The translations under genes and the position numbers were made by a program. Source: Candidatus Woesebacteria bacterium (lineage in GTDB: Bacteria; Patescibacteriota; Microgenomatia; UBA8517). Taken from it: 64,000 bases of DNA. The notes below the pieces were generated by a model. It worked only from the letters and a program-made list of their open reading frames with translations, had not been told where the DNA came from and did no database searches. Of the stretch, positions 5,204 through 61,900 are shown piece after piece. The stretch lies in assembly GCA_013426185.1 (NCBI GenBank), contig CP058602.1, forward strand, positions 724,582-788,581, in the 5' to 3' direction. How positions within the stretch are numbered: position 1 is the first letter of the stretch; the number at the start of each line of letters is the position of its first letter.

Positions 5204-5569
5204 ATGACAAGTCTTCCTGAAAAAGAACCAATTTTACCCTCCGAACAAGGGGTGTCTGTTAGACCCGAAACCTTATCTGAGAAAATAGAGAAAGTTGTTC
5301 CGGGAGTTCAAGTTGTGCCCACCCAGTTTAAAAAGCAGGTGACGGATGACCGGGGCAAACCTCTGATTACCACTCCTCAGGCGAAGAAGGTGGTTATTGA
5401 ATTGCCAGAGACAGAGGAGGTCTTAATTCAGGAAAGTAAAGGAAGTGTGGATGATTCCAAAACCTGGCTTGCCAGGTTTTGGTTGAGGATGGTGGAGAAA
5501 GCGAAGTTTTTCGGTTGGCAGATAGTTAGTATGGTTAATCTTGGAGTAGAGAAAAAGAACAATGCCTGA
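5204..5569 (+). CDS. hypothetical protein, overlaps start of downstream ATPase (operon partner)
   Basis: ORF only; 8-nt overlap with 5562 gene. Confidence 0.35.
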   Translation: MTSLPEKEPILPSEQGVSVRPETLSEKIEKVVPGVQVVPTQFKKQVTDDRGKPLITTPQAKKVVIELPETEEVLIQESKGSVDDSKTWLARFWLRMVEKAKFFGWQIVSMVNLGVEKKNNA

Positions 5570-7880
5570 TATCAATTTTATAGTTGGTTTTATTTTTCTT
5601 TTAGGCTTTCTGGCTTTCTTTTTAGCTTTTTTGGGTTTTATTGTTTTTACTTTCTTCAGATGGCGGGGAAGGGAAAAGGATTCTGTTGACTCTATCTTAC
5701 TTCGGGTCCTTGTGCCCAGAACCAATGAAGTCAAAATAGATGCCATGGAGCAGGTTTTTGCTTCTTTATTTTCTATCAAAAAGGGCGGGTGGAAGCAGAA
5801 ATTTTCATTTCAACCATCAATTGGATTTGAAATAGTAGCTCGTGAGGGTTACATCAACTTTTATGTCTTTTGCCCAAGCCGCCTTAAAGATTTAGTCGAA
5901 AAGCAGATCAATGGTGCTTATCCTGATGCAGAAGTTGTGGAGGTTCCTGAATACAATATTTTCACTGACACAGGCAAGGTGGCTTACAAAGCTTTTCAGT
6001 TGAGAGCAGAGAATTACAAACCTATTAAAACTTTTAAAGATTTGCCGGTTGATCCCTTATCTTCAATTACTTCAGTCTTGGCAAAAATGGGTGAGAAAGA
6101 AGCTGCTGTGATTCAGATTTTAATTTCTCCGGCTGATTCCAAGTGGCAAAAGGATGGCTCGCATTTTATTTCAGAAACTAAAAAGAGAGAGTCAGATCCC
6201 GAGAAGGCTAAGTTTAGCGTTTCTGGCAAGACTCTTGAAGCAGTTGAGAATAAAATTGGAAAACCTGGTTTTGAGGTTAGTATTAGAGCTATTGTGGTCT
6301 CTGAATCAAGCGAACTAGCAAAGATGCACCTTGGCAATATCAGCGGCGCTTTTGAACAATTCTCCAGCGAGTTTAATGGTTTTAAGTCTCGCAAGATTTA
6401 TCATAAAGCTTCGTTTATGGAAGATTTTCTGTATCGCTATATGCCGATGTTTAATATCTTGGGTAATCGACCTTCAATTCTAAACTCCGAAGAGTTGGCT
6501 ACTATCTTTCATTTTCCCAATCGCAGTATTACAACGCCCAATATTCAGTGGCTAAACGCTAAAAGAGCTCCTGCACCATCAATTGTTCCTGAGGAAGGCT
6601 TGTTTTTGGGAATGAGTGTCTTTAGGGGTATTAAAAGGAGAGTTTGTGTTTCAGATGATGATAGAAGAAGACATATTTATATTATTGGCGCAACAGGTAC
6701 TGGAAAATCTGAGCTCTTAAAACAGATGATGCTTCAAGATATGAAAGAAGGTAAAGGGATTTGCTTTATTGACCCTCATGATACTGTCCGCCAGCTTTTA
6801 CCTCTTATCCCGCCTGAGCGCGCCGAAGATGTTATCTACTTTAATCCTGCTGATACCGAGCGGCCAATGGGACTTAATCTTCTTGAGGCAAAAACTGAAG
6901 ACGAAAAACATTTTGTAGCAACCTCGGTTATTAACTTGATGTATAAGCTCTTTGATCCTTACAAGACTGGTATTGTTGGCCCACGTTTTGAGCACGGTGT
7001 TAGAAATGCAATGTTAACTGCGATGGCTGAGGAAGGGAATACTTTTATTGAGGTTGTGCGTATTATGACTGATTCTCGTTTTACTCAGGAGCTTTTGCCC
7101 AAGGTGACAGATCCTATGGTCAGGCGTTATTGGACTGATCAGATTGCACAGACTGCAGACTTTCACAAATCTGAAGTTTTGGACTATACAGTCTCCAAAT
7201 TTGGTCGTTTTGTGACAAACAGAATGATGAGAAATATTATTGGCCAGTCAAAATCTTCCTTTTCTTTCCGCAAGGTGATGGATGAAGGCAAGATTCTTTT
7301 GATTGATCTTGCAAAGGGTGAGTTGGGTGAAGAAAATTCCAGCTTCCTGGGGCTTATCTTGGTGCCAAGAATTCTAATGGCGGCAATGAGTAGACAGGAT
7401 ACGCCTGAGGAAAAAAGACGCGATTTTTATCTTTATGTAGATGAGTTTCAGAACTTTGCCACTCCTGATTTTGCTGTTATTTTATCAGAAGCTAGAAAAT
7501 ACAGACTTAACCTTTGTGTTGCTAATCAATTTATAGGCCAGATGGAAGAGGAAGTTAAAAATGCTGTTTTTGGTAATGTGGGAACCAAAATAGCATTTAG
7601 GGTTGGCGTGAGCGATGCTTCTTACCTGGCTCGCGAATTTGCGCCCGTTTTTAGTGAAGAGGACCTTTTGAATATTGAGCGTTTTAATGCTTTTGTGAAG
7701 ACAATTGTTCGCAACGAACCTGTACCTCCATTTTCGATTGATACGACAAAAGATATGAGCGAGATTAAAAAACAAGAAAATCCCAAAGTTGCTCAGATTA
7801 TCAAAGAAATGAGCCGACTAAAGTATGGTCGAGATGTAAGGGAAGTGGAAGCGGAAATTGCTCGTCGGGCTAAACTTTAA
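5562..7880 (+). CDS. VirD4/TraD/TraG-like P-loop NTPase (T4SS coupling-protein-like, DUF87-type) with two N-terminal TM helices
   Basis: N-terminal TM pair, Walker A GATGTGKS, Walker B LYVDEFQNF, conserved CVANQ block; paralog of 52787..54940. Confidence 0.5.
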   Translation: MPDINFIVGFIFLLGFLAFFLAFLGFIVFTFFRWRGREKDSVDSILLRVLVPRTNEVKIDAMEQVFASLFSIKKGGWKQKFSFQPSIGFEIVAREGYINFYVFCPSRLKDLVEKQINGAYPDAEVVEVPEYNIFTDTGKVAYKAFQLRAENYKPIKTFKDLPVDPLSSITSVLAKMGEKEAAVIQILISPADSKWQKDGSHFISETKKRESDPEKAKFSVSGKTLEAVENKIGKPGFEVSIRAIVVSESSELAKMHLGNISGAFEQFSSEFNGFKSRKIYHKASFMEDFLYRYMPMFNILGNRPSILNSEELATIFHFPNRSITTPNIQWLNAKRAPAPSIVPEEGLFLGMSVFRGIKRRVCVSDDDRRRHIYIIGATGTGKSELLKQMMLQDMKEGKGICFIDPHDTVRQLLPLIPPERAEDVIYFNPADTERPMGLNLLEAKTEDEKHFVATSVINLMYKLFDPYKTGIVGPRFEHGVRNAMLTAMAEEGNTFIEVVRIMTDSRFTQELLPKVTDPMVRRYWTDQIAQTADFHKSEVLDYTVSKFGRFVTNRMMRNIIGQSKSSFSFRKVMDEGKILLIDLAKGELGEENSSFLGLILVPRILMAAMSRQDTPEEKRRDFYLYVDEFQNFATPDFAVILSEARKYRLNLCVANQFIGQMEEEVKNAVFGNVGTKIAFRVGVSDASYLAREFAPVFSEEDLLNIERFNAFVKTIVRNEPVPPFSIDTTKDMSEIKKQENPKVAQIIKEMSRLKYGRDVREVEAEIARRAKL

Positions 7881-7940
7881 CTTCTTTTCTGATATAATAT
7901 AACTCTAGCGATTTTTCCTTGATGAAATTTTGAGGTCAAG

Positions 7941-8012
7941 GGTCGGTAACTCAGCGGCAGAGTACCACTCTTATAAAGTGGGAGTCGGTGGTTCGAATCC
8001 ACCCCGACCCAC
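7941..8012 (+). tRNA. tRNA with anticodon UAU (apparent tRNA-Ile(UAU))
   Basis: cloverleaf folded by hand: acceptor GGGTCGG/CCGACCC, D-stem ACTC/GAGT, anticodon stem CCACT/AGTGG, loop CTTATAA, T-arm GGTGG-TTCGAAT-CCACC, discriminator A. Confidence 0.7.
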
Positions 8013-8055
8013 CCTTAGGTAAATAATTCTTAGGAAGCGCTTTTTTTGAGGTTTT

Positions 8056-8993: not shown

Positions 8994-9413
8994 ATGGGTA
9001 TTAATTTTAACAGTTTATTTGTTCATAAAGCTGAGAAAAAAAATGTCTCTTGGTTTAATAAGGTCTTGTCTTTAGCCTTCTCTGTTTTAACAATTTTAGT
9101 ATTTAGCGCTTTTTGGAGTAATTTTTCCAAGCTAAGACAAGCTGAGAAGAAGATAGAAGAGAAAAAAAGAAGTCTTGAGGAATTAAGAAGAGAAAATGAA
9201 TCTATCAAAAATAGGCTTAAGGAGATTAGTTCAGAGGCGTATATCGAGAAACAACTAAGGGATAATTTAGCGATGGTAAAAAAGGGCGAGGTTGTGGTGG
9301 TTTTGCCTGATGAGGAGACTATCAAGAGTTTTGTCCCCAAGATAGATATTGGTGGTGACAAGGCAATTAATTTGCCTAATTGGCGCAAGTGGTCTCTTTT
9401 CTTTAATTTCTAG
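8994..9413 (+). CDS. FtsB/DivIC-like septum formation initiator (single TM + coiled coil)
   Basis: TM segment followed by coiled coil KLRQAEKKIEEKKRSLEELRRENESIKNRLKEI and conserved GEVVVVLPDEE-like tail. Confidence 0.55.
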   Translation: MGINFNSLFVHKAEKKNVSWFNKVLSLAFSVLTILVFSAFWSNFSKLRQAEKKIEEKKRSLEELRRENESIKNRLKEISSEAYIEKQLRDNLAMVKKGEVVVVLPDEETIKSFVPKIDIGGDKAINLPNWRKWSLFFNF

Positions 9414-9419
9414 ATTGTG

Positions 9420-9705
9420 TTGCGGGGCTGGGGATCGAACCCAGTCTGGAAGATTATGCCTAAAGTTTTCTCCGATTTCTCGAGAGTGTCGGACTATGTC
9501 TTGCCCGTGAGATAAGAAATCTATCTCAAGGGCTTTGGCGTATAGTCTCTACGGATTTTACATTCATGTAAACCGAACGTAATCTTTCCTCGGCGTTGCC
9601 ATGATCAAATAGATTTTAGGTTTCGCCGATATAGCCAAATTTTTCCCCCATTAAATCGAGGGAAGCCCATTTTGAGCCTTCCGTGCAGCCGTACACTACC
9701 CCGCA
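9420..9705 (-). tRNA. tRNA(CAU) (elongator Met or Ile2/lysidine type) interrupted between U33 and C34 by a group I intron
   Basis: 5' exon TGCGGGGTAGTGTACGGCTGCACGGAAGGCT (9705-9675) and 3' exon CATAATCTTCCAGACTGGGTTCGATCCCCAGCCCCGCA (9458-9421) join to a 69-nt cloverleaf with loop CUCAUAA; acceptor TGCGGGG/CCCCGCA. Confidence 0.75.
9459..9674 (-). ncRNA. group I intron (IC3-like, Azoarcus tRNA-Ile intron-like core) inside tRNA(CAU)
   Basis: 5' exon ends in U, intron ends in G (..ACUUUAGG). An internal guide sequence (GGGCUUCC) pairs with the exon end (GGAAGGCU). Core blocks AUCGGCGAAACCUAA, AUGGCAACGCCGAG and CCGUAGAGACUAUACG resemble the Azoarcus/cyanobacterial tRNA introns as I recall them from memory. 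Confidence 0.7.
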
Positions 9706-9800
9706 TGTTAACTATAAAGAACATGCGCATTATACATGGAATTTGGTAGTTAAGCAACCCCCAATGCGTACCAGTATATATAGTATAATATAACTTAAGG

Positions 9801-12013: not shown

Positions 12014-12255
12014 TAAGTATAAAGCAAATAAATAGTTAAAAGTTCAAAGTGCAAAGTTAAAAGTTGGAATTTACTATTCTGTAATTTGAAAAATTGGATA
12101 ATTGTAGAATTGTTTAGAATTTAGGATTTGGACCTTGTAATTTGGAGCTTGGAATTTGTTTGTAATTTGTATATTGGAATTTGTAATTTTATTCTATAAT
12201 CCAAAATCTATAATCTAATCATAAAGTTTTGAATTTTAAGTTTTGAGTTATTTTT
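12014..12255. repeat. mosaic AT-rich modular intergenic repeat region (modules shared with 17419-17782, 55064-55542 etc.)
   Basis: contains gtagaacgtagtaagta..., ttgtaatttggagcttggaatttgtttgtaatttg, tctataatccaaaatctataatcta modules; about 230 nt is the reverse complement of 55100-55330. Confidence 0.8.
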
Positions 12256-12603
12256 ATGTTTATTTCTTTTGACCAATTTTCTCAGGTTGATATAAGAATT
12301 GGAACGGTGGTTAAGGCCGAGGTGCCTGAGTGGAGCCATTGGGTTATGAGACTTGAGGTTGATTTTGGAGAAGAAATTGGCAAAAAGACTTGTTTTTCAG
12401 GCATTATGAAGTTTTTTAAACCGGAAGAGCTTGTTGGTAGACAATTTCCTTTTGTTATTAACCTTGAACCTAAAAGAATAGGACCTGATAAAGAGTTGAG
12501 TGAATGTATGATGATAATGGCGGTTCCTTCAGAAGATGAAGACACTGCTCCTGTTCTTTTTTCTCTTTCAGAAAAAGTTGAAAACGGAACGAGAGTAAGG
12601 TGA
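12256..12603 (+). CDS. tRNA-binding domain protein (CsaA/Trbp111/EMAP-like)
   Basis: QVDIRIGTVVKAEVPE... OB-fold tRNA-binding signature. Confidence 0.65.
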   Translation: MFISFDQFSQVDIRIGTVVKAEVPEWSHWVMRLEVDFGEEIGKKTCFSGIMKFFKPEELVGRQFPFVINLEPKRIGPDKELSECMMIMAVPSEDEDTAPVLFSLSEKVENGTRVR

Positions 12604-13123
12604 TAGCTGGGACTAGGGAGCTAGTCGGAGTTGGTCGAAGTTAGTCCTCGCTTACAGCGAGGCTGGTCAAAGCTGGTCGGAAGACAGTATCTAGTATCTT
12701 GTATTATGTATTATGGGAACAATGCATTTTCCTGCATAATACTTAATTCATAATACTAAATTCAGTGTTCCTAATTTGTTTGTGATTTGAAAAATTGGAA
12801 AATTGTAATTTGTTTAGGATTTAGAATTTGGAATTTGTATATTGTAATTTGTTTGTAATTTGGAACTTGGAATTTGGAATTTTGATTTTTACTCTTTGTT
12901 CTCTGTTCTAACCTGGTAGGTAAAAGGCAAGAGGTAAAAGAATTCGGATTTCAGCTATCAGCTGTCAGCTGTGGGAGTTAGTTGTTATCTTAATTCATAA
13001 ATCCTAAATCATAAATCAAAATTCTGTAATCTAATTTTTGACTTTTGAGTTTTAAGTTTTGAGTTATACTTTTGACTTTTAATTTTTGAGTTAGCTCGTT
13101 TTTAAGTGTATAATTAGCTGCTT
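12604..13123. repeat. mosaic modular intergenic repeat region including a 110-nt inverted-repeat module (12676-12790)
   Basis: modules tcggaagacagtatctagtat..gtattatgtattatg[GGAACAATGCATTTTCCTG]cataatac..., gaattcggatttcagctatcagctgtcagctg, ggtaaaaggcaagaggtaaaag. Confidence 0.8.
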
Positions 13124-17418: not shown

Positions 17419-17782
17419 TCGGAAGCCAGTATTTAGTATTTTGTATTATGCAGAGAATACAGGTAGAAAGTAGAATGTAGTAAGTAGAAAGCAAATAAAT
17501 AGTTAAAAGTTCAAAGTGCAAAGTTAAAAGAATTCGGATTTCAGCTGTCAGCCGTCAGCTATCAGATTTGAGCGCTATCTAATTCATAAATCTTAAATCC
17601 TAAATCTAGATTCTATGACTTATTTGTAATTTGGAATTTGCCTGCCCGCAATCGCTAAAGCGATAGCTTTTGCAGGCGGGGAATTTGTAATTTTATTCTA
17701 TAATCCAAAATCTATAATCTAGTGTTTTGTGGTAAATTTCAGGTTAAGGAGGTAAAATAGGGGAAAATAAGCAAAACCTTAG
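17419..17782. repeat. mosaic modular intergenic repeat region (left flank of R-M island)
   Basis: modules gtagaaagtagaatgtagtaagtagaaagcaaataaatagttaaaagttcaaagtgcaaag, gaattcggatttcagctgtcagccgtcagc, ggaatttgcctgcccgcaat..gcaggcgggg (also inside 23S at about 56420-56465). Confidence 0.8.
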
Positions 17783-30234: not shown

Positions 30235-30504
30235 TAAATAGGCGAAGTTGGTCGGAAGGTTGTATTTATATCTTGTATTATGCAGGGAATACAAGTAGAA
30301 AGCAGAACGTAGTAAGTAGAAAGCAAAATTAATAAATAGTTAAAAGTTGTGTATTATCCTTTCTACTTTATACTTACTACTTTCTACTAATTTTAAGTTT
30401 TGACTTTTAAGTTTTAAGTTAGGTTGTACTTTGGATTTTGGGATTTGGAATTTTATTCTATAATCTATTTTCCCCTTATCTCTTTTCCCCAGATTTAGTA
30501 TAAT
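30235..30504. repeat. mosaic modular intergenic repeat region containing an inverted pair of the GTAGAAAG module
   Basis: caagtagaaagcagaacgtagtaagtagaaagc ... cctttctactttatacttactactttctac (reverse complement), tttggattttgggatttggaattttattctataatc. Confidence 0.8.
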
Positions 30505-42353: not shown

Positions 42354-42677
42354 CACATTAACTTAAAACTTAAAAGTCAAAAGTATAACTCAAAACTTAA
42401 AACTCAAAAGTCAAAAATTAGATTATAGATTTTGGATTAGAGATTAGAGAATAAAATTCCAAATCCCAAGCTCCAAATTACAAACAAATCACAGAATCTA
42501 GATTTAGGATTTAAGATTTATGAATTAAGATAGCAATCAACTCCGACAGCCGACGGCTGATAGCTGAAATCCGAATTCTTTTACCTTTTACCTCTTGCCT
42601 TTTACCTATTCTTGATACTTGATTCGTGATACTTGTATGTCTCGTTTGTGCTATCATAATATTGAGTTTTACAAAAC
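42354..42677. repeat. mosaic modular intergenic repeat region (reverse-complement modules)
   Basis: reverse complements of ttgagttttaagttttgag, tctataatct, ttggaatttg, gaattcggatttcagctatcagccgtcggctgtcgg, ggtaaaaggcaagaggtaaaag, and the cgtgatac/caagtatcaag module. Confidence 0.8.
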
Positions 42678-44519: not shown

Positions 44520-44693
44520 ATCGGTATCACGTATCACGAATCAAGTATCAAGAATAGGTAAAAGAGTAAAAGTTGAAAGCTAAAAGAGATCCAAGTAGAA
44601 AGTAGAACGTAGTAAGTAGAAAGCAAAATTCTATAATCTATAATCCAAAATCTATAATCTAATTTTTGACTTTTGAGTTTTAAATTAAATCTG
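44520..44693. repeat. modular intergenic repeat region
   Basis: tcacgtatcacgaatcaagtatcaagaataggtaaaagagtaaaag, caagtagaaagtagaacgtagtaagtagaaagcaaa, tctataatctataatccaaaatctataatc, tttgacttttgagttttaaa. Confidence 0.8.
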
Positions 44694-49217: not shown

Positions 49218-49246
49218 TTGACTTAGCATCTTGATGTGGTAGAATA
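49218..49246 (+). promoter_or_regulatory. sigma-70-like promoter TTGACT-16/17-TGgTAGAAT upstream of 16S leader
   Basis: hexamers read directly; transcript would run into terminator at 49333-49356. Confidence 0.35.
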
Positions 49247-49332
49247 TTTTTTGCCACAAGGTTTGTGGTCTTGAAAATGAGAAGTTTTTTATGACCAGAC
49301 GAATCCCTTTGGGGAAATAGAAAACCCACCGT

Positions 49333-49356
49333 CTGGTGGGTTTTTTAGTTTGGTTG
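49333..49356 (+). terminator. rho-independent terminator (CCCACC-GTCT-GGTGGG + T6)
   Basis: perfect 6-bp GC stem followed by TTTTTT. Confidence 0.7.
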
Positions 49357-49557
49357 CACTTTGAAAATTAAAGATTTCAACGTTCAAATTATGACTGGGA
49401 GACCTGCAAAGCAGGCACAAGCTTTTGCTTGTGAGGAAGACGAGTATACTGCAAGTCAAAGCAAGTATACCTCCGTCACTTTTTGAGGGTTTGATCCTGG
49501 CCCAGGGTGAACGCTAGCGGCGTGCCTTAAGCATGCAAGTGGGACGGTCCGCAGGAC

Positions 49558-50008
49558 CGAACAGTTAACTGTTAACAATTAACAAATTAACCAATTAAGA
49601 ATAAAATAAGCTGTGGAAACTTTTAGGTTTTTGAATTTTAAAGTTTACGAAGATAGTAAATCTTTTTACAAGAAATGTATTTTGTTGACTAGAAGCTTTA
49701 AGAGGGATTACTGGGAGCTTAAAGACCAACTTTTGAGAGCTGCTCTTTCAGTTTGTCTTAATATAGCCGAAGGTTCAGCAAAATATTCAGATAAAGATTT
49801 TAAACGATTTTTAGAGAATTCTTTGGGATCAATTAATGAGTGTTTAGCTTGTTTAGATATTGCTTTGGAAAATAGAATAATTTCTAAGATTGAATTCACT
49901 AGACTTCAGAAAGAAGCAGAGTCAATTGCAAAGCAACTAGGAGGTTTGATAAAGAAACTCCGCAATTCTTCTTAGTTGTTAATTTTGTTAAATTGTTAAT
50001 TTGTTAAA
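49558..50008 (+). other. 16S helix-6 intervening sequence carrying an ORF, closed by a long AT-rich stem
   Basis: rRNA stem TCCGCAGGACCG / GGTTCTGTCCTGCGGA flanks the insertion; extended complementary arms gaacagttaactgttaacaattaacaaattaacc / ggttaatttgttaattgttaac... Confidence 0.7.
49613..49975 (+). CDS. four-helix-bundle protein (rRNA intervening-sequence protein / Avd-like) encoded inside the 16S intervening sequence
   Basis: family signature ...LRAALSVCLNIAEGSAKYS...; paralog of 15910..16284. Confidence 0.7.
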   Translation: METFRFLNFKVYEDSKSFYKKCILLTRSFKRDYWELKDQLLRAALSVCLNIAEGSAKYSDKDFKRFLENSLGSINECLACLDIALENRIISKIEFTRLQKEAESIAKQLGGLIKKLRNSS

Positions 50009-50869
50009 GGTTCTGTCCTGCGGATAGTCGCGAACGGCTGAGTAACATGTAAGAACCTACCCAGAGGTGGGGAATACCCCCGCGAAAGCGGGGCTAATAC
50101 CGCATACGCTGCGTAGCAGCGAACTTTCAACACGCTCACACTGTGAGCTTCCAACAAACAAAAGACAACTTAATATTAGAGTTGTAAGTTGATTGTTGTT
50201 AGTTGAAGGTTGGCTGCTACGCAGCAAAGGGCGTAACTGCCCGCCTGTGGAGGGGCTTGCACACCATCAGCTAGTTGGTAGGGTAATGGCCTACCAAGGC
50301 TACGACGGTTAGGGGAGATGAGAGTCTGTTCCCCCAGAATGGGACTGAGACACGGCCCATACACCTACGGGTGGCAGCAACTGGGAATCGTGCGCAATGG
50401 GCGAAAGCCTGACGCCGCGACGCCGCGTGTGGGATGAAGGCCTTAGGGTTGTAAACCACTTTTGCCAAGTACCATACGGCACTTGGCGAATAAGCACCCG
50501 CTAACTACGTGCCAGCAGCTGCGGTAATACGTAGGGTGCGAGCGTTACCCGGATTTATTGGGCGTAAAGAGTACGTAGGCGTTCTGGTAAGTCACATTTT
50601 AAAGACTGAGGCTCAACCTCAGGAGTGGATGTGATACTGCCAGAATCGAAGAACTTAGGGGCTACTGGAACTTATCATGTAGGGGTGAAATCCGTTGATA
50701 TGATAAGGAACGCCAAGGGTGAAGACAGGTAGCTGGGAGTTTCTTGACGCTGAGGTACGAAAGCTAGGGGAGCGAAAGGGATTAGAGACCCCTGTAGTCC
50801 TAGCCGTAAACTTATGCTCGCTAGCCCTGTGCCATATGGCGCGGGGTGTAAGCTAACGCGTTAAGCGAG

Positions 50870-50919
<50 letters not shown>

Positions 50920-51395
50920 ACCTGCACAACCAGTGGAGCATGTGGTTTAATTCGAGACGAACCGAAGAACCTTACCCGGGTTTGACATTCTACCGTTTTA
51001 GTTTTCCAGAAATGGAGAGCGATCCTTAAGAAATTAAGGAAGGTAGAACAGGTGTTGCATGGCTGTCGTCAGCTCGTGCCGTAGGGTGTTCCCTTCAGTG
51101 GGGTAACGAGCGCAACCCCTGTCCTGTGTTAAATGTTCACAGGAGACTACCCTCCATTCGGAGGGGGGAAGTGGGGACGACGTCAAGTCAGCATGGCCCT
51201 TATGTCCGGGGCGACACACATGCTACAATGGAGCCTAACAATGGGTTGCCAAGCGGTAACGCGGAGCTAATCCCATCAAACGGCTTCTCAGTGGGGATTG
51301 AGGGCTGAAACCCGCCCTCATGAACGCGGAATTGGTAGTAATCGGAGATCAGCCAAGCTCCGGTGAATACGTTCTCAGGTCTTGTACACACCGCC

Positions 51396-52266
51396 AAAAG
51401 ATGCGCGCGTGGCAGTCATATATTCTAGTAAGTTAAAATCTTACCTTTCCTTGATGGTTTACCTTATCATCTTGGAATGTAGCCAAAAAAAAGTGGCAGT
51501 CCTATTGCAAAGTGAGAGCTTTGCTTTTACGGGTAACCGGTAGGACGGAGGGCCTGAGGCAAATGGCAGGGACAACACAAAAATGCTTGGCGACTTCTGC
51601 TGGGCGGTCAGAAGGAAGTCGATTTAAAAGCAGTTGTTCATGCCGGGAACAGAATATATGATGACCCATGGAGATCCTAGAAGGAACGAAGTAATTGCCT
51701 TTTAGGAAGTCAGCATTTCCATAGTAGATAATTGACAGTATACGGAAAATATTCGTATACTTGAATTATCGAAGGGAAATACGTAATGCTTCCAGCTTCA
51801 TATGTTGTTGGACTGACATAAGGCGAGGGATGTTTCCTAGTATCTATTCGAGCTGATAACAGAATCGATTTACGATTTTTTATTGCTCAAGCTGAAGGAA
51901 ATAAACCTCTGCTTTTGATGGTTCAGCAGTTTTTCAAAGTAGGGACTGTTTATCAAAAGAGTGCTAGACGCACTGGTCGTCTTCCCGCTTGGGTATTTGA
52001 AGTCACAAAAAGGGATGATATTTACAATGTCATAATACCTTTTTTCAAACGACATAAACTTTTAGGCTACAAAGCGAAAAGTTTTGATGCTTTTTGCCAA
52101 ATAGCCGAGATGGTTAAGGGAAGGCAGGATGTGCGCAAGCTCTCTAAAGAAGAACTCTCTTTTATTAGGAAGTTGAAGCTGGGGATGAATAAACATTACG
52201 GCTCGCTAAGTGCGGGAAAGCCGCTCGCTTAGTGGGAACGCACGATAACTTCGATGAAGTGCAATC
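51396..52266 (+). other. 871-nt intron-like insertion in 16S at the position equivalent to E. coli about 1400 (between CACACCGCC and CGTCA), containing a degenerate LAGLIDADG ORF
   Basis: flanking exon sequence reconstitutes the universal CCGCCCGTCA decoding-centre sequence; boundaries ambiguous by 1 nt; no canonical group I (U/G) or group II (GUGYG/AY) ends. Confidence 0.55.
51786..52232 (+). pseudogene. LAGLIDADG homing endonuclease remnant with in-frame TAA replacing the acidic codon of the motif (YVVGLT*GEGCF)
   Basis: translation from ATG 51786 read directly; downstream frame continues into ORF 51915..52232. Confidence 0.6.
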
Positions 52267-52541
52267 CGTCAAGTCAGCAAAGTTGGGGGCACCCGAACTC
52301 TCCTTGTTGGAGGGGAAGGTGAAACCAGCGATGAGGATTAAGTCGTAACAAGGTATCCGTCCTGGAAGGGGCGGATGGATCACCTCCTTTCTAAGGAGTG
52401 TAATCTACACCCCAGTTTTAATGTCGCCGTTTATCTGCTTCTTTTGGTTAATAAAAGAGGAAAAAACGGGGCACCTCTCCCAGTCATAATTTGGATGTTG
52501 AAGTTTCCTTTTTTCTCTTTAGGGCTGCTTTTGAAATAAAA

Positions 52542-52591
52542 AAGCCATCCTGGTATTTTATTTTTTTGAAAAATAAAAAGGATGGCTTTGG
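52542..52591 (-). terminator. long hairpin (AAGCCATCC ... GGATGGCTT) with T-run on the minus strand, downstream of the minus-strand ATPase operon
   Basis: 9-bp stem, AT-rich 29-nt loop, TTTTTATTT on minus strand. Confidence 0.45.
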
Positions 52592-52597
52592 TAAAAC

Positions 52598-52783
52598 TTA
52601 ATCCCCAAGAAGAGAAAATATCTTCTTGAAGATTAAAATAGTGGTTGGCCAAAAAGCTATTAAAAGAGCCAACCATGCAACTATAGGAAACAAGACGAGT
52701 AAAACAATTATCTCCATTTTTTCCTCCTTCTTGAATTTAAAAGTGCCTTTTTGAGTTCTAGACAGCTTTTTGTCTAGTCTCAA
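52598..52783 (-). CDS. small membrane protein, downstream operon partner of the VirD4-like ATPase
   Basis: 61-aa ORF with one TM, 3 nt from upstream gene. Confidence 0.3.
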   Translation of the reverse strand: MRLDKKLSRTQKGTFKFKKEEKMEIIVLLVLFPIVAWLALLIAFWPTTILIFKKIFSLLGD

Positions 52784-52786
52784 TGT

Positions 52787-54940
52787 TTAAGAGTAACTTT
52801 TGTCTGCCCACCTTTGTCGGGAGACTTCTATTACTTTTTGCTTGTTTTGATTTTTGGAAAGAGGAAGTGGAAGTGTGTGTGCCAAAAATGGGCGTGATGA
52901 ATGTCCGTCTATCATTAATTTGATAGCAATCTGATAATTTGCAAGATTAACAAGGTCATTTTCGCTAAAAACTTCGGCAAATTCTTTACTTAAGGCTGCA
53001 GCATCTTCTGCACCTGCTGAAAAGGTGATAATAGTTCCAGCATTGCCCAAAATTGCTTTTCTTACATTTTCAGGAATTTGGGCCATATATTGGTTGGCAA
53101 GAGTAAGCGAAAGATTATATTTCCTTATTTCAGAAAGTATTTTGATAAATGAATCTGTGGCAAAGTTTTGGAACTCATCAACAAAAACATAATAAGGAGT
53201 TCTTTGTTCTTGAGGAATATCAACTCTTCTCATTGCCGCAAGCTGAATTTGGGTAATAAGCATTGCTCCAAGAAGGTTTGCATTGTCTTCACCTAGCCTT
53301 CCTTGAGAAAGATTGGCAAGAAGAATTTTGCCTTCGTTGATGATTTTATCTAAAGAAATAGTGCTTTTTGGCCTGCCAATAATTCTTCTAATCATAGGGG
53401 AGGTTACAAACTGTCCAACTTTGTTTTGGATTGGAGCAATAGCCTCTTTTTGCAGGCGATCTGGCATTTTTTCGTATTCTTCTTTCCAAAAGTGGATTAG
53501 TGCTTGGTCGGTTGTTTTCTGCAAGACTTGATTGCGAAAGTTATTGTTAACCAAAATTTTAAGAACATCCTCAAGAGTTGAATTGGGGTAGGTGGCAAGA
53601 GTCATAAAAGAATTTCTCAAGATATATTCCATTCTTGCTGACCACACATTAGCCCAGACTTTGGTAAAGATGCTCATCAATCCCGAGACGACAAGCTCTG
53701 CTTCTTCCTGATTTTTAACCTCAAGAGGGTTGAGAGTAATGGGGAAGTCGCGGTCTGCCGGGTTAAAATAGACAACATCATTTATTCTATGGCTTGGGAT
53801 GTAATCCAAAAGGATCTCACAAGTATCGCCATGTGGATCGATGTAGGCAACACCGCGGTCTTTTTTAAAATCATCAATAATCATATTTGCCATCATTGTT
53901 GATTTACCTGTACCGGTCTTACCAACTGCCCACATATGGCGAACTCTGTCTTTATTTTTGATACCAAAAATGACTTCTTGGTTTCTGAATAAAGTCTTGG
54001 CAAAAAAATTAATTTCTTTTTTGGCTTCTTCATCAGAAGTTGCGATAGGTAAATTATCAGGCGGCTCGTAAAGCACTGAAACACCCCAGCTAATGCCAGT
54101 CGTTTTTATTTTCTCGCTTGGCAAATGCCAAAGCGTTGCCAGTTCTTTGATGTTTAATATTTGATTGTCACGAACAGAACGGTTAATTAGATTTTTTAGA
54201 TTATTTTGTTTTAGAGAAAATATACTTTTTTTCTTTGTTTTGAAAGCATTGCCATCGGCTCTATTGAAAACCCCAAAGGCGCTAATTAATTCTTTTACGG
54301 TTTTTGTTTGGTTTGAAGCGATTCTTATAGAAGTCCTGAAACCTGTGTAAGAAATTTTTTCATTTATTACATTTTTGTCCGATCTTGGAGAGTATGTTCC
54401 GTCCTCGTTTTTTGTCCCTTTTTCTGCAAAAGAGGCGCCTTTTTGTTGCCAAGATGAATCAGTCGCTTCAAGAGCAATTTGAATTAGCGCAAATTCATCA
54501 GGGTCATTTTTAGATAATACTGAAAGGACTGAAGATAAAGGATCTATCTCATTAAAGGATTCAAAAGTAGCAATTGGATAATAACTTCCTTTTTTAAGAA
54601 TAAGAGATGCTATTTGAAGATCTGAAATATTTAACTTGAAAAATTCAGGTTGGCTTAAAATATCTGGTGTTCTTTCTATAATAACAAGCGGATAATTTGA
54701 CTGAAGTTGTGTTTCAATAAAGGGAGCAATGTCCTTGTCACAGGTGATTTGAAACTTTATTTGCTGATTGACAAGCGCTATTTCAAGAGCGAGCGGCTGG
54801 GGAATGGTTCCTGTTAATTTTTCCCAAAAAGAGACAGCGTTAATCTGCGTTAGAGCAGAAAGAAAAGTCTGCGCCGCTTCAGGTGTAACCTCGGTACTCC
54901 TGGGTATTTTTAGGTTTAAAGTTACAAGTTCCAAAGGCAT
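52787..54940 (-). CDS. VirD4/TraD/TraG-like P-loop NTPase, paralog of 5562..7880, inserted between 16S and 23S
   Basis: Walker A GKTGTGKS, YIDPHGD...VYFNPAD, Walker B YVFVDEFQNFAT, TLANQ; no N-terminal TM. Confidence 0.5.
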   Translation of the reverse strand: MPLELVTLNLKIPRSTEVTPEAAQTFLSALTQINAVSFWEKLTGTIPQPLALEIALVNQQIKFQITCDKDIAPFIETQLQSNYPLVIIERTPDILSQPEFFKLNISDLQIASLILKKGSYYPIATFESFNEIDPLSSVLSVLSKNDPDEFALIQIALEATDSSWQQKGASFAEKGTKNEDGTYSPRSDKNVINEKISYTGFRTSIRIASNQTKTVKELISAFGVFNRADGNAFKTKKKSIFSLKQNNLKNLINRSVRDNQILNIKELATLWHLPSEKIKTTGISWGVSVLYEPPDNLPIATSDEEAKKEINFFAKTLFRNQEVIFGIKNKDRVRHMWAVGKTGTGKSTMMANMIIDDFKKDRGVAYIDPHGDTCEILLDYIPSHRINDVVYFNPADRDFPITLNPLEVKNQEEAELVVSGLMSIFTKVWANVWSARMEYILRNSFMTLATYPNSTLEDVLKILVNNNFRNQVLQKTTDQALIHFWKEEYEKMPDRLQKEAIAPIQNKVGQFVTSPMIRRIIGRPKSTISLDKIINEGKILLANLSQGRLGEDNANLLGAMLITQIQLAAMRRVDIPQEQRTPYYVFVDEFQNFATDSFIKILSEIRKYNLSLTLANQYMAQIPENVRKAILGNAGTIITFSAGAEDAAALSKEFAEVFSENDLVNLANYQIAIKLMIDGHSSRPFLAHTLPLPLSKNQNKQKVIEVSRQRWADKSYS

Positions 54941-54991
54941 ACTATTTATTATACCTTAATTTTGGGGTAAGAGTAGGGAGTTTATTTTTGG

Positions 54992-55063
54992 TGGGTGCGC
55001 ATGGAATCGAACCATGTACCTCTTCTTTATCAGAGAAGCGTTCTACCAGTGAACTACGCACCC
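54992..55063 (-). tRNA. tRNA-Ile(GAU), antisense to the rRNA genes
   Basis: acceptor GGGTGCG/CGCACCC, anticodon loop CTGATAA, T-arm CATGG-TTCGATT-CCATG. Confidence 0.85.
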
Positions 55064-55542
55064 TTGGTGACATTTATTTTATGATAAAAAGGCTTGTTAA
55101 GCAAATGGAAGGATAACTTAAAACTTAAAAGTCAAAAGTCAAAAATTAGATTACAGAATACAGATTAGAGAATAAAGAATAAAATTACAAATTCCAAGCT
55201 CCAAATTACAATATACAAACAATATACAAATTCTAAATTCTAATTTCTAAATTCTAAACAATTCTACAATTATCCAATTTTTCAAATCATAAATTAACTC
55301 AAAACTTAAAAATCAAAATTCAAAAGTTGGGATTAGAACAAAGAGAGTAGAAAGTAGGATGTAGTAAGTAGAAAGCAAAAATACAAAATTAAAGACCACA
55401 CCCCTCCTTTCTACTTTCTGCTTACTACTTTCTACTAACTCCCGAATGACTTTGACTAACCTCGCCGTAGGCGAGGACTAACTCTGACTAACTCCGCCAT
55501 AGGCGGAGACCAACTTTGACTAACTTTAACTAAAACCCGCTC
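55064..55542. repeat. mosaic modular repeat region (largest in window) in the 16S-23S gap
   Basis: about 230 nt reverse-complementary to 12040-12250; inverted pair of the GTAGAAAG module (55338-55440); gactaacctcgccgtaggcgaggactaac / gactaactccgccataggcggagacc hairpin pair. Confidence 0.85.
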
Positions 55543-55571
55543 TTGACTAATCTTATGCTTCTTTATATAAT
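55543..55571 (+). promoter_or_regulatory. consensus sigma-70 promoter TTGACT-17-TATAAT driving tRNA-Ala/23S/5S
   Basis: TTGACT 55543-55548, 17-nt spacer, TATAAT 55566-55571. Confidence 0.6.
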
Positions 55572-55698
55572 GACACTTGCCTTTTTGGGCCGGTATTATT
55601 TGTATTTGTTAATGGAAAAAACAGAAAGCTTAACTATAAAATTTCGAAGCCTTTTTGCAGGTTTGTAATTTTTAGAGGTTTTTTCCTTTGAACGTATT

Positions 55699-55726
55699 AC
55701 CGGCTCAAGAAGCCGGTTTTTTTGTT
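55699..55726 (+). terminator. terminator-like hairpin CCGGCT-caagaa-AGCCGG + T7 inside the rRNA leader, followed by GTTGCACTTTGAA motif
   Basis: seen directly; the same motif GGTTGCACTTTGAA follows the terminator before 16S (49350-49364). Confidence 0.4.
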
Positions 55727-55748
55727 GCACTTTGAATATCTTTTGGTT

Positions 55749-55823
55749 TGGGCCTGTAGCTCAGTTGGCTAGAGCGCTACATTTGCAATGTAGAGGTCAG
55801 CGGTTCGAAGCCGCTCAGGTCCA
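55749..55823 (+). tRNA. tRNA-Ala(UGC)
   Basis: acceptor GGGCCTG/CAGGTCC with G3-U70 identity pair, anticodon loop TTTGCAA; one C-C mismatch in T-stem. Confidence 0.8.
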
Positions 55824-55920
55824 CAGGCTCTTTGAAAAGTGAAGAGAATTTTGTCCTATCGCTTTCGTCAAATTAATTTTGGCGGGTAAAGCGAAAGAGA
55901 AAATGGGAAGGCCGTAAAAA

Positions 55921-60055
<4,135 letters not shown>

Positions 60056-60155
60056 TTTTTCCTTTCCTATTTTTCTCTTTCGCTTTGCCAATGGCAAAAT
60101 TCTTTTCACTTTCTCAAGCTTTAGCTTGAGAGTTTAAATTTTAGGTTTGGGCCTT

Positions 60156-60279
60156 TCGGTCTTTAAGAGCTAGGCGGAACCACCTGATCCCATTCCGAAT
60201 TCAGAAGTGAAACGCCTAAGCGCCGACGATAGTTGTCCGGCAACGGACCGCGAAAATAGGCCAAGGCCGAAAGACCCAA
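60156..60279 (+). rRNA. rrf: 5S rRNA
   Basis: CCACCTGATCCCATTCCGAATTCAGAAGTGAAACG core and closing helix GGTCTTT/AAAGACC; ends approximate. Confidence 0.65.
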
Positions 60280-61432: not shown

Positions 61433-61900
61433 TAGATAAAAGGCAAGAGGTAAAAGGTAAAAGAAACCCAAGTAGAAAGTAGTAAGTAGTAAGTAGAAAG
61501 CAAAAGATTGTATCTAGTATTTTGTATTATGTATTATGGGAACAATGCATTTTTCTGCATAATACATAATTCATAATACTAAGTTCAGAATTTTTCCCTT
61601 TGTTCTTTTTTCTAACCTAGTAGGTAAAAGGCGAGAGACTTCAGCTATCGGACATCGGCTATCGGATATCAGGCATCAGATGTTAGCTGTCGGATGTCGG
61701 AATTTGGTCGGAGCCATTATCAAGTATCACGAAGCAAGAATCAAGTATTAAGAATAGTTAAAAGAATTCGGGTCTCAGCTATCAGCTGTCAGCTGTCGAC
61801 TTTTGAAATTTGTAATCGTGGTTGTTGGTTTTCGGATCTTTAGATTGGTAATTATTGAATTATAATTTCTAAATTTCCAATTTTTAATCCTATATTTTAT
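61433..61900. repeat. mosaic modular intergenic repeat region including a full copy of the 110-nt inverted-repeat module (61505-61590)
   Basis: ggcaagaggtaaaaggtaaaag, caagtagaaagtagtaagtagtaagtagaaagcaaaag, tatctagtattttgtattatgtattatgGGAACAATGCATTTTTCTGcataatacataattcataatac, cttcagctatcggacatcggctatcggatatcaggcatcag, gaattcgggtctcagctatcagctgtcagctg. Confidence 0.85.

Follow-up and report, generated by a model that had tools for sequence, protein, structure and literature searches.

Unlinked ribosomal RNA (rRNA) genes are widespread and conserved at the level of clades, the Patescibacteria included (Brewer et al., bioRxiv 10.1101/705046). The described systems comprise Thermus thermophilus, in which the 16S gene lies apart from the 23S-5S pair, Rickettsia, Helicobacter, the Deinococcus-Thermus group and the Patescibacteria in general. 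Among the Microgenomates, Candidatus Chazhemtobacterium aquaticus Ch65 carries a single rRNA cluster that is interrupted by two protein-coding genes (PMC7143001). Here we analyzed a stretch of 64,000 nt (hereafter the window; contig CP058602.1, positions 724,582 to 788,581) that carries the single rRNA gene set of a Woesebacteria-like member of the Microgenomates, within the Candidate Phyla Radiation (CPR) or Patescibacteria. In this window the 16S gene is separated from the 23S gene by an antisense gene encoding an ATPase and by an antisense tRNA-Ile gene. With a probability of about 70%, we propose that the rRNA gene set is organized, clade-wide, in three independent transcription units (16S; antisense tRNA-Ile/ATPase; tRNA-Ala-23S-5S), that rRNA transcription would proceed through a conditional terminator before both the 16S and the 23S genes, and that the ATPase would be a vertically inherited housekeeping paralog.

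The rRNA and transfer RNA (tRNA) genes were placed by means of Rfam and ARAGORN (Table 1), and every element that the initial annotation of this DNA had listed was found where it had been placed. The order is 16S (+), ATPase (-) and tRNA-Ile(GAU) (-), the last on the opposite strand as had been noticed, followed by a putative promoter, tRNA-Ala, 23S and 5S, all on the plus strand. The canonical 3' end of the 16S gene, GGATCACCTCCTTTCT, finishes at 52392, in agreement with the initial annotation, and lies 3,523 bp from the 5' end of the 23S gene at 55916, a distance that exceeds the 1,500 bp above which Brewer et al. consider rRNA genes as unlinked. As in other unlinked rRNA genes, those of the window are more than 1.5 kb apart, the 23S-5S part is predicted to have its own promoter, the arrangement is conserved within a clade and the bearer is a small-genome, probably symbiotic bacterium. 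In contrast to them, the window has all parts in one 11-kb neighbourhood, with a conserved antisense ATPase gene between them, a tRNA-Ile gene detached as a minigene and putative terminator/anti-terminator leaders on both units. With Ch65 the locus shares its Microgenomates affiliation, the single cluster, the presence of trnI-GAU and trnA-UGC between 16S and 23S and the interposition of protein-coding genes; however, the two genes of Ch65, compared by description only, are described between the two tRNA genes, whereas in the window the ATPase gene lies between 16S and tRNA-Ile. The split rRNA locus is a further member of a known pattern. As for the source organism, the composition of the window (35-40% G+C, with a strongly positive GC skew and co-oriented genes), the insertions in its rRNA genes and the names of the ATPase homologs that are 67-77% identical (Ca. 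Woesebacteria, Microgenomates or Patescibacteria), taken together, led us to assign it to a Woesebacteria-like CPR bacterium.

In the proposed organization, the first unit would comprise a promoter, a leader, a boxA-like box and the 16S gene, and would end at a convergent hairpin terminator. The second, antisense unit would consist of a tRNA-Ile(GAU) minigene that is autonomous by virtue of a promoter of its own; in this species the minigene probably also drives the ATPase gene and a small membrane open reading frame (ORF). The third would run from a promoter through a leader, a boxA-like box, tRNA-Ala and another boxA-like box to 23S and 5S. The uncoupling of 16S from 23S-5S transcription suggested by the initial annotation finds support in the convergent hairpin terminator predicted after 16S, the conserved near-consensus promoter predicted before tRNA-Ala-23S-5S and the antisense position of tRNA-Ile; the first two of these elements are also what predicts an independent transcription of 23S. 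The putative TTGACT-17-TATAAT promoter at 55543-55571 had already been recognized; it is kept in relatives, as 16 of the 17 non-redundant related lineages have TTGAC[TGA]-17/18-TATAAT or a close variant in the corresponding position. One promoter-like match alone is within chance, given the 20 matches in the window versus 12.9 +/- 3.2 in shuffled sequences. The putative promoter of the 16S unit was identical in locus L001 and in the conspecific strains, and most of the other lineages examined have promoter-like sites at the equivalent location, while no promoter-like match was found there in L087 and L099.

The layout and its conservation were established by fetching the DNA around orthologs of the ATPase gene and locating the rRNA and tRNA genes in it. 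Exact-protein look-ups and a metagenome scan supplied the close relatives, as the matches to genome collections listed mostly distant CPR orthologs. The species of the window is represented by six independent assemblies from as many metagenome samples (L090-L093, L096 and L106); they encode an ATPase that is 98-100% identical and show the same order and orientation, L096 and L106 covering one side of the layout each. About 17 further lineages, with ATPases 51-88% and 16S genes 79-94% identical, also have this layout. The ATPase gene lies antisense between 16S and tRNA-Ala-23S in L001 (82% identity), L086 and L094 (77%), L002 and L087 (73%), L107 (69%) and L015 (51%), as well as in L004/5, L089, L098 and L099 (68%), and one side of the layout is visible at contig ends in L006, L008, L095, L097 and L100-L103. 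The gap between 16S and 23S ranges from 3.5 to 11 kb in the relatives because other genes come and go. Among the matches listed, orthologs with 42-54% identity (from Levy-, Shapiro- and Gottesmanbacteria, and L007) had no rRNA gene within 10 kb; therefore, the linkage of the ATPase gene to the rRNA genes appears to have arisen at the base of this clade. The genes flanking the rRNA locus are absent around the ATPase gene outside the clade and give no direction for the original rearrangement. These comparisons indicate that the split layout is an inherited, lineage-typical state among these ultra-small bacteria and not a recent break. The initial annotation had itself proposed a comparison with related genomes and had stated that an ancestral split would be less notable; the comparison shows the split to be the ancestral state.

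Between each predicted promoter and its gene, both rRNA units carry a leader with an intrinsic terminator (a GC-rich hairpin and a U-tract), a feature that is kept in relatives, and both leaders fold more stably than shuffled controls (z-scores in Table 1). The 23S leader shows a conserved order of elements, namely a 5' element, the motif TTACTTRATGARAAG, internal hairpins, a GC hairpin followed by T6-T8 that scores as an intrinsic terminator, and the box GTTGCACTTTGAA; the ATG of TTACTTRATGARAAG opens an ORF of 11-22 codons in every lineage. A covariance model built from the 23S leaders of 14 lineages recovered this leader in every clade locus covering the region, except for L015, which is too divergent, and gave no matches elsewhere. 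In the 16S leader, the element ACCAGACG is complementary to CGTCTGGT (49330-49337), which corresponds to the loop and the 3' arm of the terminator hairpin. The leader ATG and a short ORF are kept in all lineages, even though the peptide sequences are not conserved. There was no match to an Rfam aptamer, and no Rfam family matched either leader at E <= 1; at permissive thresholds over both leaders, a weak, sub-threshold likeness to Phe_leader was seen (27 bits versus a threshold of 55). A boxA-like box is found twice as GTTGCACTTTGAA, once in each leader, and once as GCTCTTTGAAAA before 23S; we take these boxes to resemble the Gram-positive rrn boxA, GTTCTTTGAAAA.

In both leaders, the complementarity of the upstream element to the terminator follows lineage-specific changes. 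In the 16S leader, for instance, the upstream element and the terminator read CCAGACG and CGTCTGG in the window, CCAGATGG and CCATCTGG in L089, GACCAGGTCGGG and CCCGGCTTGGTC in L015, and GCCAAG and CTTGGC in L006. This covariation was evaluated with a test of our own rather than with R-scape, by comparing the duplex stability of own-lineage and cross-lineage pairs by permutation, since helices other than that of the terminator differ in register between lineages. For the ACCAGAYG element of the 16S leader versus the terminator (9 lineages), the duplex stability was -15.3 kcal/mol for own and -11.4 kcal/mol for cross pairs (p ~0.001). For the 5' element of the 23S leader versus its terminator the values were -14.0 and -10.5 kcal/mol, with none of 20,000 permutations as good (p < 5e-5), and for the ATG region versus the segment preceding the terminator they were -10.9 and -7.8 kcal/mol (p ~2e-4). 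Thus, three permutation tests, made with few and related sequences, back a mutually exclusive alternative pairing. As no promoter-like site was found between either leader terminator and its rRNA gene, read-through of the terminators would be required, and because, in addition, the terminator hairpins co-vary with an upstream complementary element, we infer that both leaders are conditional terminators, that is, attenuators of rRNA transcription.

According to this proposal, rRNA transcription would have to pass a conditional terminator before 16S and another before 23S, so that the two uncoupled units could be throttled in parallel. Candidate triggers would be the occupancy of the conserved ATGARAA motif or mini-ORF, a Nus-type factor, or a pausing of the polymerase that depends on nucleoside triphosphates. 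The leaders resemble known attenuators (the trp, phe and pyrBI leaders and the expression platforms of riboswitches) in that a short ORF or conserved motif close to the promoter is combined with an intrinsic terminator and with an upstream pairing that would exclude the terminator hairpin; unlike these, they precede rRNA and tRNA genes and not a biosynthetic operon, and they show no runs of regulatory codons, no known aptamer and no Rfam homology. In targeted literature searches, we came across no description of leaders of this kind at rRNA genes. It is possible, although we put it forward only tentatively, that both units are gated by dedicated terminator/anti-terminator leaders forming an undescribed class of rRNA-gene attenuators, which would keep 16S and 23S-5S in step and throttle ribosome production. 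In the most daring version of this idea, free ribosomes would feed back directly on rRNA transcription by way of the conserved ATG mini-ORF, whose end adjoins the anti-terminator strand.

Antitermination leaders of rrn operons (boxB-boxA-boxC, with the NusB/NusE complex) offer an alternative explanation, which we regard as unlikely. In it the hairpins would be constitutive parts of a boxB-boxA(-boxC) leader, or processing stems, that a Nus-modified polymerase always reads through without any switching. In its favour, boxA-like boxes occur in the leader and in the pre-23S spacer with a hairpin before each, and GTTGCACTTTGAA follows each leader hairpin. In the rrn leaders of Escherichia coli, too, boxA is preceded by a hairpin; moreover, rRNA synthesis needs a high output, for which efficient termination seems costly. 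However, the hairpins of the window differ from boxB in being full intrinsic terminators with complete U-tracts (T6-T8). The boxA-like box lies downstream of the terminator, so that the complex would not yet be assembled when the polymerase arrives, and the co-varying, lineage-specific competitor strand upstream fits expression platforms, whereas constitutive hairpins need none.

Less probable still is that the two leader segments (55576-55723 and 49252-49346) are independent small-RNA genes, for example of a 6S-like rod, with the rRNA units depending on other, unrecognised promoters. Each segment is kept as a discrete unit in which a strong promoter-like site and a canonical terminator lie approximately 95-150 nt apart, and the 23S-side RNA of the window folds as a rod with paired ends. 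This rod is not kept in other lineages, though, and neither 6S nor any other Rfam family matched at E <= 1. The stretch from each terminator to tRNA-Ala or 16S has no promoter-like site (on the 23S side, 26 nt separate the T-run from tRNA-Ala), and directly downstream lies a boxA-like box, typical of rrn leaders.

Several points weigh against the organization in three units with conditional terminators. Promoter use, termination efficiency and the co-transcription of tRNA-Ile with the ATPase gene are predictions throughout. RNAalifold, applied to a MAFFT alignment of 14 leaders, recovered the terminator helix only (7 pairs, one of them co-varying), and the permutation tests rest on few, phylogenetically related sequences. 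Ahead of the leader ATG, a Shine-Dalgarno sequence is either weak or lacking, particularly in the window, and one lineage (L100/L101) has a boxA-like box yet no GC hairpin upstream of 16S. The two leaders are alike in architecture, but they have little sequence in common and a common descent is unsupported; their homology was accordingly dropped, as global alignment gave z = 2.0 and the covariance model of the 23S leader found no match on the 16S leaders. Finally, two orthologs depart from the layout, since L088 (68% identity) has no 16S within 8 kb and L007 (54%) has no rRNA gene nearby.

The tRNA-Ile gene of the second unit also appears to be autonomous. In most lineages, an equivalent putative promoter, TTGnnn-17-TAAAAT or TAAATT, occurs about 41 nt upstream of tRNA-Ile, in either gene orientation. 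In the window the tRNA gene ends 48 nt before the start codon of the ATPase gene and no terminator was found between them; therefore, their co-transcription is likely. A perfect TATAAT is present at 54948-54953 (-), 7 nt upstream of the ATPase ATG and without a good -35 box; if it were used, the messenger would be leaderless. The flipped tRNA-Ile pointed out by the initial annotation is indeed antisense here, but it is not peculiar to this genome, as the gene has a predicted promoter of its own and takes either orientation across the clade. Both orientations are interspersed on the neighbour-joining tree of the ATPase, which has no bootstrap support, and this would imply at least five inversions of the minigene. 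No convincing inverted repeats that could account for the flips were found around it.

The AT-rich repeats reported as a 480-nt array do fill the spacer between the two divergent promoters, but there is nothing peculiar to the rRNA locus in them. The spacer consists of 7/14-nt AT-rich repeats and of a 32-nt unit with TTGACTAAC and a small hairpin. Conspecific strains differ in the distance from tRNA-Ile to tRNA-Ala (479-912 nt) and in the arrangement of the 7-nt units, while the two promoter modules hardly change. Repeats of these types recur between many other genes of the window and within the insertions of 23S; the array is therefore a fast-evolving, genome-wide filler not specific for this locus. 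AT-rich low-complexity stretches with heptanucleotide units such as ATTTGGA, TTTTGAC, AACTTAA, CTTTCTA and AAGTAGA were seen at 12126-13093, 17463-17489, 30354-30420, 42359-42635, 44526-44661, 61470-61670 and, inside 23S, 57629-58063; they are hypervariable between conspecific strains.

The 717-aa product of the antisense gene had been described as a VirD4/TraD-like ATPase, that is, a type IV coupling protein (T4CP). The ORF and its T4CP-type domains hold: TrwB_AAD_bind (37.7 bits, cut-off 20.5), TraG-D_C (33.1 bits, cut-off 22) and DUF87 were all above the Pfam cut-offs, and precomputed annotation places DUF8128 at the N-terminus. The Walker A (GKTGTGKS) and Walker B (VDEFQ) motifs, invariant in the ATPase alignment, are those of an FtsK/HerA-type P-loop NTPase, and an all-alpha insertion, seen in the AlphaFold model (predicted local distance difference test score, pLDDT, 72.7) as a helical block at residues 410-534, accompanies the TraG-D_C match. 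On the other hand, an N-terminal membrane anchor is lacking, as no transmembrane helix was found (maximum 19-residue Kyte-Doolittle hydropathy, 1.19). No relaxase or type IV secretion system (T4SS) partner genes are present in the rRNA gap or beside the paralog at 5562-7880, and the NCBIfam T4CP/CedD models matched around Walker A only, far below their cut-offs (best 39 bits versus 600 for CedD, and 36 versus 366 for SXT_TraD). There was no sequence match in the PDB at E <= 0.01. The model matches TrwK/VirB4 over both domains (E 7e-12), and its ATPase domain matches HerA, DotL and TrwB with target-normalised TM-scores of 0.5-0.6; the N-terminal ~300 aa are modelled as a soluble alpha/beta domain. 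The protein thus shares the P-loop core, the all-alpha insertion and TraG-D_C with T4CPs (VirD4, TrwB, TraD, DotL), with VirB4/TrwK and with the HerA/FtsK superfamily, and it differs from T4CPs by its missing anchor, its soluble N-domain of ~300 aa with DUF8128, which gives a VirB4-like architecture, and the lack of relaxase or T4SS neighbours. Sequence and model together point to a soluble protein of two domains within the VirB4/T4CP/HerA group. A total of 5,713 T4CP homologs were reported from 2,918 Patescibacteria genomes, only 148 of them near virB4 (PMC12102498); the ATPase belongs to these approximately two-per-genome homologs far from virB4, which may be exapted.

Downstream of the ATPase gene, the 61-aa membrane ORF that had been listed exists, but it likely starts at an internal ATG behind an AAGGAGG Shine-Dalgarno sequence, giving 39 aa only, and it is species-specific: it is present in the conspecific L090 and L091, and missing from the conspecific L092 and from all other lineages. 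In view of this distribution we rejected a conserved role of the small ORF as partner of the ATPase or as its anchor. The "operon" of both genes was an overstatement, since the small membrane ORF is restricted to the species and is lacking in L092.

The ATPase (type A) is, as had been proposed, a paralog of the 772-aa protein encoded at 5562-7880 (type B), with 33% identity from end to end (E 2e-131). The idea that a secretion-type module was duplicated into the rRNA spacer was not supported, as the identity is only 33%, each paralog has separate orthologs and neither copy has T4SS partners. The fetched Microgenomates loci are clearly of type A (526-753 bits, versus 325-441 for B), and other CPR classes hold both types, sometimes in tandem (L034, L035, L041 and L045). 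Together, the low identity, the separate orthologs of each paralog and the presence of both types in other CPR classes suggest that the duplication is ancient. We consider the ATPase a vertically inherited housekeeping paralog and not a recently inserted mobile module. The tandem A/B paralogs hint that the two proteins might work jointly, for example in a mixed ring or in successive steps.

That the ATPase is functionally tied to the rRNA locus, as a translocase of ribosomes or rRNA or through an expression set by supercoiling or antisense transcription, so that selection and not inertia would hold it in position, seems to us rather improbable. The synteny across a deep clade, in spite of other genes entering and leaving the gap, the convergence of the gene on the most heavily transcribed gene of the cell and a relic ATPase fragment beside 16S in L001 would agree with it. 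Yet neither domain nor fold searches revealed a ribosome-related domain, inertia suffices to keep synteny in small streamlined genomes, and, among the matches listed, the 42-54% identical orthologs of other Microgenomates and the homologs across the CPR do not lie beside rRNA genes. The fragment of L001 (13390-13671) encodes 94 aa with 91% identity to the ATPase of the window, adjoins the 3' end of 16S and is separated from the intact gene by some 3 kb; we read it as the remnant of a later gene insertion between the ATPase gene and 16S of the ancestral arrangement.

An assembly chimera or a recent strain-specific inversion or insertion that broke a canonical operon, as the initial annotation had considered, can be practically set aside: although rRNA genes are classic points of breaks and mis-joins in metagenome assemblies and many homologs lie on contigs of 2-7 kb, the layout is shared by the six conspecific assemblies and by all relatives with enough flank except L088, down to 51% ATPase identity, and synteny extends to the flanking genes, which encode a protein with a VTT domain ahead of 16S and one with an S1 domain behind 5S.

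The rRNA genes themselves are enlarged by insertions. The Rfam span of 16S (49967-51469) is partial because the gene, which really extends from ~49479 to 52392, holds two large insertions; its 5' end (TTTGATCCTGGCCCAG) was located at ~49479-49505. In the ORF of the ~900-nt insertion, a TAA stop stands in place of the codon for the catalytic Asp in GLTDGEG (~51815), and therefore the LAGLIDADG endonuclease gene looks dead. Insertions with LAGLIDADG genes are typical of the rRNA genes of CPR bacteria (PMC11270868). The 23S gene has 4147 nt, versus 2925 positions in the model, with several insertions of ~80-440 nt. Within the species the 16S gene measures 2.9 kb in the window and 3.8 kb in L090, and the length of 23S is between 3.3 and 5.7 kb in strains with 98-99% identical ATPases (L090-L093 and L096); the rRNA insertions turn over rapidly within one species.

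Several relatives have a conserved ORF of ~66 aa (..KL.F.L..FRGVPHESA.GEL..) downstream of the leader terminator and ahead of tRNA-Ala (L086, 6764-6964 (-); L088, 6459-6659 (-); also L015, L098 and L099), so that it would be co-transcribed with 23S. In L086, L088, L098 and L099 it is downstream of the hairpin and has no strong promoter-like site of its own, which would imply read-through of the leader terminator. We had the impression of a vague likeness to ribosomal protein L29, and no match was found in NCBIfam.

Two further tRNA genes of the window deserve mention. A tRNA-Ile(UAU) gene is present at 7940-8013 (+), 60 nt after the paralogous ATPase gene. The reading of AUA by UAU is unusual in bacteria, which normally employ a lysidine-modified CAU. 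A link between paralog B and this tRNA was discarded, as the adjacency is absent from other loci and was treated as a coincidence. At ~9405-9760 (-), a group I intron (Rfam, 9469-9726, 60 bits) splits a tRNA gene for which ARAGORN made no call; its 5' half, ending in the anticodon-loop-like CTCAAAA, precedes the intron, and its 3' half (...GGGTTCGATCCCCAGCCCCGCA) follows it.

Table 1. Features of the rRNA locus, in window coordinates; promoters, terminators, leader elements and boxA-like boxes are predicted.
Feature	Position	Strand	Basis
Putative 16S-unit promoter, TTGACT-16-(TG)gTAGAAT	49218-49245	+	
16S leader: 5' hairpin, ATGAGAAG motif, ACCAGACG element, small hairpin, putative intrinsic terminator	49252-49346	+	Folding z = -3.95
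Five-codon mini-ORF on the ATGAGAAG motif of the 16S leader; its stop abuts ACCAGACG	49277-49294	+	
ACCAGACG element of the 16S leader	49294-49301	+	
Putative 16S-leader terminator hairpin, CCCACC-GTCT-GGTGGG + T6	49325-49346	+	
boxA-like GTTGCACTTTGAAAA immediately 3' of the 16S-leader terminator; contains an identical GTTGCACTTTGAA	49353-49367	+	
16S rRNA gene with two insertions	~49479-52392	+	3' end motif, 5' end motif, Rfam
Helix 6 intervening sequence of 16S, flanked by TTAAC-rich inverted repeats	~49566-50008		
Four-helix-bundle ORF in the helix 6 intervening sequence, 23S-IVS-protein type	49613-49975		TIGR02436
~900-nt insertion near the 16S 3' end	roughly 51440-52330		
Degenerate LAGLIDADG ORF inside the ~900-nt insertion	51915-52232		
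Predicted convergent terminator zone, 16S (+) versus ATPase unit (-)	52459-52590	.	Terminator scan, z = -3.0
Hairpin + T-run, part of the convergent zone	52481-52459	-	
21-bp hairpin with A and T runs on its flanks, part of the convergent zone	52541-52588		
61-aa ORF	52598-52783	-	
39-aa single-helix membrane peptide, likely start at internal ATG behind AAGGAGG	52598-52717	-	
717-aa ATPase	52787-54940	-	Pfam, fold matches
tRNA-Ile(GAU), encoded CCA end, antisense to the rRNA genes	54989-55063	-	Rfam/ARAGORN
Putative promoter of the tRNA-Ile minigene, TTGCTT-17-TAAAAT	55076-55104	-	
Hypervariable AT-rich low-complexity spacer between two divergent promoters	55115-55533	.	
Putative promoter of the tRNA-Ala-23S-5S unit, TTGACT-17-TATAAT	55543-55571	+	
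23S-unit leader, conserved element of ~130-150 nt	55576-55723	+	Folding z = -3.45
5' element of the 23S leader, complementary to the terminator region	55581-55598	+	
Conserved TTAATGGAA motif with 18-codon ORF, 23S leader of the window	55612-55668	+	
Putative 23S-leader terminator: hairpin ACCGGCT-CAAGA-AGCCGGT (55699-55717), then T7	55699-55723	+	
boxA-like GTTGCACTTTGAA after the 23S-leader terminator; 13 nt identical to the 16S-leader copy	55724-55736	+	
tRNA-Ala(UGC)	55750-55824	+	Rfam/ARAGORN
Second boxA-like box, GCTCTTTGAAAA, between tRNA-Ala and 23S	55827-55838	+	
23S rRNA	55916-60062	+	Rfam
5S rRNA	60155-60272	+	Rfam

In summary, what is new here is above all the pair of attenuator-like leaders, together with the conserved antisense ATPase gene and the flipping tRNA-Ile minigene. 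The split adds an example with clade-wide synteny to the unlinked rRNA genes of the Patescibacteria and matters little by itself, and the insertions serve as a warning for annotation, as they can badly truncate the Rfam coordinates of CPR rRNAs. The locus also provides natural experiments, in the recurrent flips of a tRNA minigene, in a hypervariable spacer between two predicted strong divergent promoters and in a core T4CP-like ATPase gene kept in antisense orientation between genes that are the most heavily transcribed in the cell. Furthermore, the leaders bear on how the output of 16S and 23S may be balanced when the rRNA genes are unlinked, as well as on the regulation of ribosome synthesis in CPR bacteria, for which a conserved conditional terminator before both units represents a concrete, testable hypothesis.

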